Positions 55,252-64,000 are shown, numbered from the stretch's first letter. The stretch: 64,000 nucleotides of DNA from Escherichia coli (GCF_041248615.1 NZ_CP158426.1); one strand, 5' to 3'. The notes: a model not told the origin generated them from the letters alone. Made by a program: numbers and translations.

Positions 55252-56175
55252 CTAGCGCGTTCGCTGCGAAAGCACCTGCTGCTTATCCAGCTTTTGCACC
55301 AGCGGCTGCACCACTTTATCCCCATGCTGACCAAAGTATTGATACAGCGTATCGGACGCACTTTTGGTCAGCACCATAATCTCAATGCGTCGGTTGCCCG
55401 CGCTTTGCGGATTTTTGGCATCCAGCAGCATCTGGTCCGCCATTGCGCTTACCTGCATCACTTTATCTTCCGGCATTCCAGCCTCTTCCAGCACCCGACG
55501 GGCCGAAAGCGCGCGATCGCCCGAAAGGTTCCAGTTGTTGTAGATATTGTTTTTGTAGGCCATCGCATCGGTATGCCCGGTGATGATGATCTTATTGTCG
55601 AGCGAATCAAAAACCGGCGCTAACTCCACCAGCAAAGTTTTAAAGAACGGCATAATCTGCGCGCTGCCGCGTTCAAACATATTGCGGTTCTGGTCATCTT
55701 TAATCAGCACGCGCAGTCCCTGGGGAACAATCTCCATCTCCAGATTCGCTTCCATATGCGCATCACGGGCGATGGTGTTGATACTGGTTGCCAGCTCACC
55801 AAGCTCAGTAGCGGATTTCTTCTTCAGCAGCGCCGTTTTCTCATTGACGTCACGCGCTTTTTTCTCCGTCTCTTCCGGCACCGCCACGGTGGCAGGTTTT
55901 GGCGGATGAGACGGGCTGATTTTATTTAACGGCGACAACCCGCCGCCATTGAAAATCGACTGCCCGTGCAGCGCGGCGATAATGCTTTCACGCTCGGATT
56001 TACTGACGCTGTTGACAATCCACAGCGTCATAAACAGCGCCATCATTGCCAAAGTAAAGTCGGCGAACGCCACCTTCCACGCCCCGCCGTGGTGCCCGGC
56101 ATGATTCTTTTTGATCTGCCGCCGGACGATGGTGGTTTTTGCCCCACGCTCGCGGCGGTTGCCCGTCTTTCTCAT
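55252..56175 (-). CDS. lafU: Flag-2 lateral-flagellar stator protein, MotB-like
   Basis: ORF 55252..56208 trimmed to MRKTGNRRERG...; the start overlaps the lafT stop; MotB-like N-terminal helix and C-terminal OmpA-like domain. Confidence 0.8.
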   Translation of the reverse strand: MRKTGNRRERGAKTTIVRRQIKKNHAGHHGGAWKVAFADFTLAMMALFMTLWIVNSVSKSERESIIAALHGQSIFNGGGLSPLNKISPSHPPKPATVAVPEETEKKARDVNEKTALLKKKSATELGELATSINTIARDAHMEANLEMEIVPQGLRVLIKDDQNRNMFERGSAQIMPFFKTLLVELAPVFDSLDNKIIITGHTDAMAYKNNIYNNWNLSGDRALSARRVLEEAGMPEDKVMQVSAMADQMLLDAKNPQSAGNRRIEIMVLTKSASDTLYQYFGQHGDKVVQPLVQKLDKQQVLSQRTR

Positions 56176-56177
56176 GC

Positions 56178-57041
56178 TTATTCTTGCTCCAGCATCGCAT
56201 TCACCCACGCGTCGAGGTTGGCGAAGGTCGGTTTGGACGCCAGATGCAGCAGCTTACGCCCGGCGTCCACTGCCAGCAGCGTCGGTTTGCCGCCTGCCTG
56301 CGCCACCAGCACGGTGCGCACGCATTCCAGCAAAGAATGTTCTGCCCGCGCCTGTTGTTCCATGGCGTTGGCGAGCGGGTCCATCAGGCAGTAGCAGATA
56401 AAGACGCCTAAAAACGTCCCCACCAGCGCTGCCGCCACTTTCAGGCCAATCAGTGCGATAGAGCCGTCAATCGACTGCATGGTGATGATGATGCCCAACA
56501 CCGCCGCACAAATGCCAAACCCCGGCATCGCTTCGGCGGTACGTTGCAGCGAGCGCGACGGCGTTAGCAGCGACTCTTCCGCGGTGTCCAGTTCCTGATC
56601 GAGAATGCCTTCCAGTTCATGGGCGTCGATTTTACCCATCGCCATCAGGCGAAAGTTATCGGCAATAAAGGTCACCAGCCGCTTCTGGGTTAACACCAGC
56701 GGGTATTTCTGGAAAATGGTGCTCTCTTCCGGTTGCTCGATATGCTGATCCAGCATGCGCAGGCCGCCGTTTTGCACCATTTCGAGCAACTCATACAGGC
56801 ACATTAATAGCTGACGCTGAAACTCCGGCCCGAGCTGTTTTTTACTGATCACGCCTTTAATTTGATGAGCAATCTCTTTCAGCACATGTTTCGGATTACC
56901 AATAATCATCGCCCCGAAGCCCGCGCCTAAAATAATGATCATTTCCGCCGGTTGCCAGATAGCCACTAATTGCCCGCCCGCTTCAAAATAACCGCCAAAT
57001 ACGCAGCCGAGCACCACCAGTAAACCTAATATTTTTTGCAT
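56178..57041 (-). CDS. lafT: Flag-2 stator protein, MotA-like
   Basis: 287-aa four-helix membrane ORF. Confidence 0.8.
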   Translation of the reverse strand: MQKILGLLVVLGCVFGGYFEAGGQLVAIWQPAEMIIILGAGFGAMIIGNPKHVLKEIAHQIKGVISKKQLGPEFQRQLLMCLYELLEMVQNGGLRMLDQHIEQPEESTIFQKYPLVLTQKRLVTFIADNFRLMAMGKIDAHELEGILDQELDTAEESLLTPSRSLQRTAEAMPGFGICAAVLGIIITMQSIDGSIALIGLKVAAALVGTFLGVFICYCLMDPLANAMEQQARAEHSLLECVRTVLVAQAGGKPTLLAVDAGRKLLHLASKPTFANLDAWVNAMLEQE

Positions 57042-57053
57042 GATTTCTTCACT

Positions 57054-57773
57054 TTAATTCGGATAGACAAAATCACGAATTTTCTGCGCGATCTGTTTAT
57101 TCAGTTGACAAATACGGGCTTCGGTTAGCCCTAATACCAGCGCAATCTCTTTGAGATTCATCTCATGCTGGTAATACATGGAGAGGATCAGTTGCTCTTT
57201 TTCGCTTAATAGTGAAAGTGCGTGTTGCAGCATTTGCTGGGTGACAAACTGATCTTCCAGTTCCCTGCCAGCAAGTGGAATGCCTTGCCCTTCGCCGTTC
57301 AGCAGTTCGTCAAGGCTGGCGAGCGTTTCCGCCCCTTCCAGTTGCTGATATTCGAGATAATCTTCATGCGAGATCCCTTCCACGGCCAGTTCTGACCACT
57401 CAGGCTCGTGCCCCAGTTTTTTACGCGTTTCGCGAATCAGGTCTTTCATCTGATGATATTTCTGTCGCAGCTGGCGCGGTCGCCAGTCGAGAGCGCGCAG
57501 CTCATCCAGGATCGCGCCGCGAATACGGTGCACGGCATAGCCCGCAAAACCTTCGTCCGGCAGTCCGTAGCGGCGAATGGCATTAAGCAGCCCCATTAAC
57601 GCCGTTTGTTCCATATCCTGACGATCAATAATGCAATTACACTGCGGGGCAAGTTGCCGCACAACTTTACGCACCAGTGGTAAATAGGCCTGCAAGTAGT
57701 GGCTCTCCTGCTGCGGGGTTAATACCGGCGCGGCAGCAAATTCTTCTGACTCGAATAATACGTCCTGTAGCAT
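57054..57773 (-). CDS. lafS: Flag-2 flagellar sigma factor (FliA / sigma-28 family)
   Basis: 239-aa ORF with sigma-70-family regions 2 and 4. Confidence 0.8.
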   Translation of the reverse strand: MLQDVLFESEEFAAAPVLTPQQESHYLQAYLPLVRKVVRQLAPQCNCIIDRQDMEQTALMGLLNAIRRYGLPDEGFAGYAVHRIRGAILDELRALDWRPRQLRQKYHQMKDLIRETRKKLGHEPEWSELAVEGISHEDYLEYQQLEGAETLASLDELLNGEGQGIPLAGRELEDQFVTQQMLQHALSLLSEKEQLILSMYYQHEMNLKEIALVLGLTEARICQLNKQIAQKIRDFVYPN

Positions 57774-57792
57774 GTTTATATCCGCCTGGTGA

Positions 57793-62492: not shown

Positions 62493-62926
62493 GATACTGC
62501 TCCTTGGGATTAATCGTTTTCGTTTCGATACCCTGTAAAAACGACACCTCAGGAGCAAACTTAAAATCGCCGTTAAAATTTTTTTGCCACGTATTATCCG
62601 ATGCCACTTTTAGCTAAAAAAAGCAGAGTTTAAATTCAGATAAAAAGATTATTAGCAATATCTGCCACATGGCCAGGTATCAAAATATGTCTTTATCAAA
62701 CGCTTGATATAGTTAAGATTGTCATCAATTATCGCGTTTTGTTCTCAATGTACTGATGCCAAAATTTACATTGCGTTGCAAATAGTACACATTTGGCTAT
62801 TGTACCTGTCCTGTCATTTCGTTACATTTCCACGCCATATAGTGATTAAGAATAATCCTATTACCGTAAAATATTAATTATCACGCAGAAAAATCATCTT
62901 CTCAGGGACGTATAAGACTGTGCTTT

Positions 62927-63820
62927 ATGCAAAGCACTATCAGGAAACATTTATCCCTTGCTAAGGTAAACTCAACTATGAGTATTATTATCAACAACTG
63001 GCGGATGGACCCGTCGCTTAATGCCTTAATACATTGCGAAACGGGTGAAACACGTCGTCTCGGCGAATACCATTTTATTTTGCTGGAAACATTAGCAAAA
63101 AATGCCGATGTGGTTTTATCGCGATCTTATTTATGTGCCGAAGTATGGAAGAACCGTATTGTCGGCGGAAATAGCCTGCCGACGGCGATCCATGCGTTGC
63201 GCGTTGCTATCGACGATGATGGCAAACAACAGAACATTATTAAAACAATTCCGAAGAAAGGTTACTTATGCAATAAAGAGTATGTATCTTTGCCGGAGTC
63301 ATCGCCTGCAGAAGCGCTGATTATTACCGACCAGATACAGGATACAGCCCCAGAAGAGATATCTTCGACTACACCGTATGTACCTGTTAGAAAAAAACAT
63401 AAAGGACTGATGGGGTTAGCGTTGGCCGCAGCTGTTATATTGGTTGGCTCAACCGTGGGGTATTCACACTTGAAAAGTACACCTGACGCTCCACAACTGG
63501 TAAAAGAGTCAATCAACAGTCCAAGAATAAAAATATTTCATCTTAGTTCTGGAAAAGAAAATAATTCCGCACCGTTACTGTCACAAACCCTCGCACCAGG
63601 AAAAGACAAACTCGATAATTTATTGTCAGCGCATAATATGACAATGACAACCTATTATAAATATGTTCGTAACCGACTGGAAAGTGATATTGTTCTGCAC
63701 AACCAGTGCAATGGTAGCTGGCAATTAACTTTTAATGTGGATAGCTGGCAGAATAGCGATATTAATAGCGCGATGTATCAGAATTTAGAGAAGTTGTTAA
63801 ATACTGTGCAGAAATGCTGA
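62927..63820 (+). CDS. lafZ: ToxR/CadC-like membrane-anchored transcriptional regulator (winged-helix DNA-binding domain, one transmembrane helix, periplasmic C-terminus)
   Basis: 297-aa ORF with a hydrophobic segment (GLMGLALAAAVILVGSTVGY); the start may instead be the ATG at 62978, which has a better ribosome-binding site. Confidence 0.7.
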   Translation: MQSTIRKHLSLAKVNSTMSIIINNWRMDPSLNALIHCETGETRRLGEYHFILLETLAKNADVVLSRSYLCAEVWKNRIVGGNSLPTAIHALRVAIDDDGKQQNIIKTIPKKGYLCNKEYVSLPESSPAEALIITDQIQDTAPEEISSTTPYVPVRKKHKGLMGLALAAAVILVGSTVGYSHLKSTPDAPQLVKESINSPRIKIFHLSSGKENNSAPLLSQTLAPGKDKLDNLLSAHNMTMTTYYKYVRNRLESDIVLHNQCNGSWQLTFNVDSWQNSDINSAMYQNLEKLLNTVQKC

Positions 63821-63835
63821 CGAGTGCCAATATAT

Positions 63836-63870
63836 GCCGGATGCGACGCTAAAGGCGTCTTATCCGGCAT
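63836..63870. repeat. REP-type palindromic element (gccggatgcgacgctaaaggcgtcttatccggcat)
   Basis: Classic enterobacterial REP palindrome between convergent genes. Confidence 0.7.
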
Positions 63871-63878
63871 ACCGATAA

Positions 63879-64000
63879 TTACCCCAATAAACTCCTCACC
63901 GTCTGGCTGGAAATTCGCGCCTGACCGTTCACCGCCTGCAATAAAACCTGATAGTTATGATTGGCGCTATCCAGCACGCCGCCGAGATTTTCCGACGCCT
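63879..64000 (-). CDS. lafW: 3' end of a flagellar hook-associated protein gene (FlgL/HAP3-like), partial; continues beyond the window
   Basis: Open minus-strand frame running to the window edge; assignment rests mainly on position within Flag-2. Confidence 0.4.
   Translation of the reverse strand, partial: ASENLGGVLDSANHNYQVLLQAVNGQARISSQTVRSLLG

Follow-up and report, generated by a model that had tools for sequence, protein, structure and literature searches.

Introduction

Among the closest described relatives of the system treated here are the lateral flagellar (laf) systems of Vibrio parahaemolyticus and Aeromonas hydrophila, in which a single operon holds the genes in the order fliD-fliS-fliT-fliK-fliL-fliA-motA-motB and lafA lies separately. 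The Escherichia coli system, Flag-2, was first described in strain 042, according to later papers that cite the founding report (Ren et al. 2005, J Bacteriol 187:1430). Here we analyze a 64-kb stretch of E. coli DNA, called the window throughout, whose final portion (55252–64000) had been predicted to hold an intact distal Flag-2 cluster directly beside dinB.

Three marker genes, lafK, lafW, and lafZ, distinguish Flag-2 from Flag-1, in which they are absent (PMC6993521). A survey of 100 E. coli strains found Flag-2 in 24 and a lfhA/lafU scar in the other 76 (De Maayer et al. 2020, PMC6993521). The function of the system in Escherichia was still described as not understood in 2024 (PMC11420993).

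The locus in the window resembles the Vibrio and Aeromonas laf systems in its operon logic, in the sigma-54 promoter before the fliD-type gene, in its short flagellin, and in its dedicated sigma-28 factor. It differs from them in several respects. Experiments have shown that the Vibrio and Aeromonas systems drive swarming. The primary flagellar system of E. coli is peritrichous, not polar, unlike that of Vibrio and Aeromonas. Finally, the Vibrio and Aeromonas systems lack lafZ and lafW, which are Flag-2-specific markers (PMC6993521).

Identity and gene content of the cluster

A megablast search of window positions 55000–64000 against 5,426 complete E. coli genomes returned a single-piece, 100% identical match in E. 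coli NRZ14408 (NZ_LT599825.1, 4186545–4195545), and the whole window corresponds to 4131546–4195545 of that accession. The identity of the cluster is not a matter of chance, because ten consecutive laf genes are 100% identical to a deposited genome. Positions 55252–64000 are almost certainly the distal end (cluster 3) of the known Flag-2 locus, which is ancestral in Escherichia, was lost from K-12 by a lfhA–lafU deletion, and is complete in NRZ14408; to this locus we attach the putative regulatory cascade described below.

Gene coordinates were taken from the RefSeq annotation of NZ_LT599825.1, and we checked starts, stops, and internal stops ourselves. All ten complete laf genes in the window have ATG starts and no internal stops; for lafU, lafA, and lafZ, the mechanically called open reading frames (ORFs) reach further upstream than the annotated ATG. 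Full-length Pfam or NCBIfam matches were found for nine of the ten proteins, LafD being the exception. The gene set and order of Flag-2 cluster 3, lafW-lafZ-lafA-B-C-D-E-F-S-T-U, is present, with lafW represented by its 3′ end only. On the other side, 70 bp separate the lafU stop from dinB (54126–55181, minus strand). The predicted distal cluster is thus intact, with lafU through lafA and lafZ uninterrupted, matched to their families (LafD apart), and next to dinB. The named genes lie where the original prediction had placed them, but its "start of lafW" does not hold: what the window contains is the 3′ end of that gene, its low-coordinate end.

All of the laf genes except lafZ are on the minus strand. 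The gene nearest dinB, lafU (55252–56175), encodes a MotB-type stator protein of 307 amino acids (aa) that matches the NCBIfam LafU equivalog over 1–297 of 297 positions (580 bits) as well as Pfam MotB_plug and OmpA. Its neighbor lafT (56178–57041; annotated motA) encodes a MotA-type stator protein (287 aa; NCBIfam MotA1, 1–281 of 282, 375 bits; Pfam MotA_N and MotA_ExbB). LafU has one transmembrane segment (35–58), which bears the conserved stator Asp (AFADFTLAMM), and together LafT and LafU look like a proton-type MotA/MotB stator. The sigma factor gene lafS (57054–57773; annotated as a FliA/WhiG sigma factor) encodes a FliA/sigma-28-type protein of 239 aa that matches NCBIfam PRK12427 over 1–233 of 233 (444 bits) and Pfam Sigma70_r2 and r4.

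The remaining genes of the series encode structural and accessory proteins. The product of lafF (57793–58260) is a FliL-like basal-body-associated protein of 155 aa with an N-terminal transmembrane segment (Pfam FliL, E 2.4e-10), and that of lafE (58268–59329) is a FliK-like hook-length control protein of 353 aa (Pfam Flg_hook, E 2.5e-17). Next comes lafD (59326–59637; annotated hypothetical), which sits at the fliT position, a placement conserved across genera, and encodes a small protein (103 aa) for which neither Pfam nor NCBIfam gave a match passing the threshold. It is followed by lafC (59642–60034), encoding a FliS-type flagellin export chaperone (130 aa; Pfam FliS, E 2.4e-31; TIGR00208), and lafB (60057–61373), encoding a FliD-type filament cap (438 aa; Pfam FliD_N and FliD_C, E 4.7e-44). 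The lateral flagellin gene, lafA (61578–62492), encodes 304 aa that match NCBIfam lat_flg_LafA_1 from end to end (1–304 of 304; 667 bits, where the cutoff is 440). Divergent from it on the plus strand, lafZ (62978–63820) encodes a ToxR/CadC-like membrane-bound one-component regulator of 280 aa. The window closes with the last 40 codons and stop of lafW (63879–64000; protein end QTVRSLLG), a gene that runs to 64856 in NRZ14408.

The chromosomal site and the marker genes also identify the locus as Flag-2. In NRZ14408 the site is bounded by dinB at one end and by lfhA (annotated flhA) next to yafL at the other. Of the markers, lafZ is in the window, and NZ_LT599825.1 further carries lafW and, at the lafK position, a protein with a sigma-54-interaction domain. 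The Flag-2 locus of strain 042 (NC_017626.1) occupies the same site between dinB and yafL, has the same order (lafU-T-S-F-E-D-C-B-A/lafZ/lafW), and is ~98% identical in nucleotide sequence. It differs by a RelE/ParE-type toxin–antitoxin pair in the lafZ–lafW gap (variable region VR2), where the window has only an element resembling a repetitive extragenic palindrome (REP). It differs too by a frameshift in lfgC, a gene that is intact in NRZ14408 (143 codons), and by lacking the EcoRII/Dcm pair that NRZ14408 carries between lfgA and lfgM.

The complete locus, its K-12 scar, and its prevalence

Across the whole ~40-kb Flag-2 locus of NZ_LT599825.1, from lfhA to lafU, the annotation flags no gene as a pseudogene. 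The Flag-2 genes upstream of the window, whose loss would have undermined a claim of intactness, are neither deleted nor disrupted in NRZ14408.

In MG1655, lfhA and lafU are adjacent pseudogenes (248358–250827). The K-12 deletion junction falls inside lafU at 56009–56020: the BLAST match of MG1655 to the window ends at 56020, and the lfhA match shares ~12 nt with it, which is what the published repeat-mediated deletion would leave. The earlier statement that K-12 keeps only remnants here is confirmed: K-12 has just the fused lfhA′/lafU′ pseudogenes at this site, and its homology to the window stops at about position 56020.

With a genome counted as positive when it contained 80% or more of the 9-kb query, 1267 of the 5426 complete E. 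coli genomes (23%) carry the segment, in line with the published survey. Every element of the Flag-2 finding is already known, and the prevalence, the variable regions, and the EcoRII/Dcm cargo have all been published.

Promoters and intergenic elements

A sigma-54 promoter consensus, TGGCACGCCTTTTGC, lies on the minus strand at 61406–61420, 33 bp ahead of the lafB start codon, and is predicted to mark the start of a lafBCDEFSTU operon. It is the sole zero-mismatch match to TGGCAC-N5-TTGC in the window, and its GG and GC elements are kept in Escherichia, Pseudocitrobacter, and Citrobacter. Strain PCN033 has likewise been noted to have a sigma-54 site ahead of lafB (PMC4578781).

Upstream of lafA we found a candidate sigma-28-type promoter, TTAAGTTT-N11-GTCGTTTT (62538–62564, minus strand). 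The block is invariant in Escherichia, Pseudocitrobacter, and Citrobacter, and the leader that follows it is likewise invariant from E. coli to Citrobacter. The pattern TAAGTTT-N10-13-GNCG occurs once per locus in all seven of the lafA-spanning loci that were fetched, always upstream of lafA. When the locus was scanned for other promoters of the LafS type, the lafA-motif pattern matched lafA alone, but it missed a motif before lfgM that was seen by eye (TAAAGTTT...CCGCTTT; L001 42736–42770, NRZ14408).

The arrangement of these promoters allows a cascade to be proposed. The hierarchy known for the Vibrio and Aeromonas laf systems is the basis for the order LafK, LafS, lafA. LafK, a sigma-54 activator encoded outside the window, would fire the TGGCAC-N5-TTGC promoter at 61406–61420. 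That promoter would transcribe lafBCDEFSTU, and so supply the cap, the chaperone, the FliT-position protein, the hook-length ruler, the FliL-like protein, LafS, and the LafT/LafU stator. LafS would then transcribe a monocistronic lafA from TTAAGTTT-N11-GTCGTTTT. The divergent lafZ would provide a ToxR-like, membrane-anchored transcription factor that probably makes expression of the system respond to a cue from outside the cytoplasm. Gene identity, intactness, motif conservation, and purifying selection were observed for this locus, whereas each of these regulatory steps, and any production of filaments, is inferred.

The shared control region between lafA and lafZ was footprinted in a seven-sequence alignment, which returned conserved blocks within 62640–62828. 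They are GATATTGCTAATAATCTTTTTAT (62640–62662), ATTTGCAACGCAATGTAAA (62765–62783), and AATGTAACGAAATGA (62814–62828), with letters given for the minus strand, and are candidate operators or lafZ promoter elements. The region is AT-rich (33–37% GC); lafZ together with the 485-bp lafA–lafZ spacer has a GC content of 33–44%.

Two hairpins lie 3′ of lafA (61460–61532, minus strand). The first, CAACACCGCC-TGCA-GGCGGTGTTG (61532–61509), has a stem that is conserved across genera and a loop that varies; the second, CGGAAA-CACCA-TTTCCG followed by a T-run (61476–61460), came from a terminator scan. One or both are likely terminators. Just 3′ of the lafA stop is a REP-like palindrome, GCCGATGCGGCGTAAACGCCTTATCCGGCC (61538–61581, plus strand), with a sub-threshold match to the REP-derived naRNA4 family (30.7 bits, E 0.024), and a further REP-like palindrome with weak naRNA4 matches on both strands fills the lafZ–lafW gap, VR2 (63826–63869). 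Such elements in the lafA–lafB and lafZ–lafW gaps would fit a locus that has long been resident in Escherichia chromosomes. An Rfam scan of 54000–64000 at E ≤ 1 gave no riboswitches or small RNAs, the matches being limited to sub-threshold naRNA4 and spurious eukaryotic families.

Selection and function

We compared the laf genes with those of related loci using the ratio of nonsynonymous to synonymous substitution rates (dN/dS). Relative to strain 042, the ratio is 0–0.15 for most laf genes and 0.015 for the housekeeping neighbor dinB. Over all comparisons made for it, lafD gives 0.09–0.16. The fastest-evolving gene, and the sole relaxed one, is lafE (0.48 vs 042). In comparisons with E. marmotae and E. 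albertii, lafB, lafC, lfgK, and lfgL all stay below 0.1, and lafA reaches only 0.003 and 0.018, respectively, at a dS of ~0.42. The LafA protein has no amino acid differences from that of strain 042 and lacks a variable middle domain. The primary flagellin, FliC, is the opposite: it is hypervariable. That LafA hardly varies from one Escherichia species to another speaks for use of the system somewhere in nature. Together, the low dN/dS and the cross-genus conservation of the lafB sigma-54 promoter and of the lafA promoter argue for a maintained system, and a functional Flag-2 is plausible, though unproven, on the indirect evidence of the intact gene set and the purifying selection.

Several points weigh against a complete system that runs under the proposed cascade. 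The −10 consensus of enteric FliA promoters is GCCGATAA, and the lafA element GTCGTTTT departs from it, so the assignment of this promoter to LafS should be taken as provisional. To judge from composition, the AT-rich control region may be a target of H-NS silencing. NRZ14408 also has a cargo insertion in the locus: an EcoRII-type endonuclease and a Dcm-type methyltransferase lie between lfgA and lfgM, ~11 kb past the window end (L001 39916–42633), a cargo already reported in 21 Escherichia strains (PMC6993521). Most directly, laboratory cultures of the ST131 strain EC958, which has an intact lfgC, gave no detectable LafA at either 28 or 37 °C, and a fliC mutant of it showed no motility (PMC4637896). 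This was the sole direct test of E. coli Flag-2 that we found in the literature, and the EC958 Flag-2 locus is reported to be without some genes.

The EC958 result, with neither LafA nor Flag-2 motility, would fit a locus whose genes are intact but cryptic in E. coli: a silenced ancestral relic, undegraded in this lineage, that makes no flagella. So would the deletion of the locus in ~77% of E. coli, the lfgC frameshift of strain 042, the transposase disruptions of lfgF and lfiG among Enterobacterales strains (PMC6993521), and the compatibility of the AT-rich control region with H-NS silencing. A dead locus, however, would gather nonsynonymous changes and frameshifts. Purifying selection is instead strong locus-wide, also between species, as the values for LafA and for the DNA-binding domain of LafZ (0.03–0.05) illustrate, and the promoter motifs are invariant across genera. 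A silenced relic is possible, but we think it doubtful.

It has also been suggested, from cargo genes, that Flag-2 has a role in export or adhesion (De Maayer et al., PMC6993521). The system could then be expressed chiefly for protein export or adhesion and not for swarming, and as Flag-1 already gives E. coli swarming, the species may have little need of a second means of motility. Against this, the locus keeps a full stator for generating torque (LafT/LafU, conserved Asp included), a FliL-like protein, a flagellin, and a cap, all under purifying selection; export alone would not need them, and VR2 here holds no secreted-effector cargo. We consider such a main role very unlikely. For the question of whether E. 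coli ever uses the system, and for what, NRZ14408 is a reasonable test strain: its locus is fully intact, including lfgC, and has no insertion sequence (IS) disruption. The lafB sigma-54 promoter, the lafA sigma-28-type promoter, the conserved lafA–lafZ blocks, and a LafZ under selection offer handles for experiments.

The EcoRII/Dcm insertion ends just upstream of a retained promoter-like motif, TAAAGTTT, before lfgM. We considered whether the insertion uncouples lfgMN from its promoter and rejected the idea, as the match to strain 042 picks up again precisely at this motif; expression of lfgMN is probably unaffected by the insertion. The CCGCTTT element of the lfgM motif is also unlike the FliA −10 consensus. 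The unusual −10 elements at lafA and lfgM could insulate the LafS (Flag-2) regulon from the FliA (Flag-1) regulon.

LafZ and a candidate partner

LafZ consists of an N-terminal winged helix-turn-helix (wHTH; 1–100), a variable linker, a transmembrane segment (142–165), and a periplasmic domain (166–280). The winged helix is highly conserved and matches Pfam Trans_reg_C (25–97); there is no receiver or other domain. In a sequence search of the PDB, the best solved-structure matches were to the DNA-binding domains of V. cholerae ToxR (E 3.7e-8) and CadC (2.3e-6). Hydropathy gives a single hydrophobic segment at 142–165, modeled as a helix at 144–164, and the C-terminal domain of 115 residues contains two invariant cysteines, Cys244 and Cys280. 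These features support a LafZ that is ToxR-like in architecture and DNA-binding domain, in agreement with the original prediction. Within Escherichia, its domain-wise dN/dS is 0.03–0.13, with 0.03–0.05 for the wHTH and ~0.1 for the periplasmic domain.

The structural model is uneven. The AlphaFold prediction has a mean predicted local distance difference test (pLDDT) score of 59.6, with 45–70 in the wHTH owing to a shallow alignment, and 73–93 in the C-terminal domain (172–280), modeled confidently as beta-alpha-beta-beta-beta-alpha. A Foldseek search with the full model gave no significant match (best E 0.011); the VtrA periplasmic domain (5kev_A) came at rank 4 (E 0.018, TM-score 0.52), among HPF-like folds, and ToxR was not in the top 50. 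LafZ shares with the ToxR/VtrA/CadC family an N-terminal OmpR-type wHTH without a receiver and a single transmembrane segment; its periplasmic alpha/beta domain with a Cys pair may be a further resemblance. It differs in having no sequence similarity outside the wHTH, only a weak fold match to VtrA, and, in E. coli, no adjacent partner gene.

Is LafZ a Flag-2 regulator at all? It could be an unrelated, horizontally acquired ToxR-like gene in a variable region: lafZ has ~42% GC, against 52–60% in the laf genes, it borders VR2, and we found no experiments on LafZ in the open-access literature. Yet lafZ is divergent to lafA in every locus examined, across four genera, and the intergenic region that the two genes share contains invariant blocks. 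The gene is also conserved in most flag-2 loci and used as a locus marker (PMC6993521). An unrelated origin of this kind is unlikely.

As a Flag-2 regulator, LafZ may have a dedicated partner in some genera. A LafZ-pattern scan of genome contigs reached 17 loci in Escherichia, Pseudocitrobacter, Citrobacter, and Phytobacter; Yersinia, Hafnia, and Budvicia lay outside it. In all 12 Citrobacter and Phytobacter loci, an ORF of ~159 aa on the lafZ strand overlaps or closely follows the lafZ stop. Full-length copies have an N-terminal hydrophobic leader and two invariant Cys; the C. rodentium copy is shorter and has no leader. The model of the ~159-aa protein is most similar to VtrC and ToxS. Within the loci of Escherichia (the window included) and Pseudocitrobacter, as distinct from the rest of those genomes, tblastn with the Citrobacter protein found no match. 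In the window, only 58 bp separate lafZ from lafW, and there is no adjacent ToxS/VtrC/TcpH-type gene.

From these observations we tentatively suggest that Flag-2 is gated by a module of the ToxR/ToxS or VtrA/VtrC type in which LafZ is the sensor, with the partner lost from, or never present in, Escherichia and Pseudocitrobacter, which nevertheless hold the periplasmic domain of LafZ under purifying selection. If so, expression of Flag-2 would need a periplasmic small-molecule cue that laboratory tests have never supplied, and E. coli LafZ would act alone or with an unlinked partner, which could explain intact loci that look silent. The idea of a LafZ partner is the sole part of this analysis that might be new.

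Other features of the window

Close to dinB, the toxin gene yafO of the yafNO module (53380–53778) is intact; the strain 042 annotation lists it as a pseudogene, interrupted by a stop codon. At 52119–52673, prfH and an RtcB-family ligase gene are short truncated pseudogenes, as in K-12; in strain 042 both are full length, and two additional genes lie beside pepD.

Elsewhere in the window, incomplete copies of ykgR and a LysR-family gene (43444–44226) adjoin a tRNA-Thr gene (44151–44226), where strain 042 has a different island with AbiE toxin–antitoxin genes and an integrase remnant. The tRNA-Thr site has the appearance of a scarred integration hotspot. At 10207–12400, an IS3-family element (10599–11827) splits a gene into fragments with a helix-turn-helix domain and a GyrI-like domain. 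Three other annotated pseudogenes are a hypothetical gene with a frameshift (1408–1958), a frameshifted ykgL (25020–25245), and a major facilitator superfamily transporter gene with an internal stop (39756–40883).

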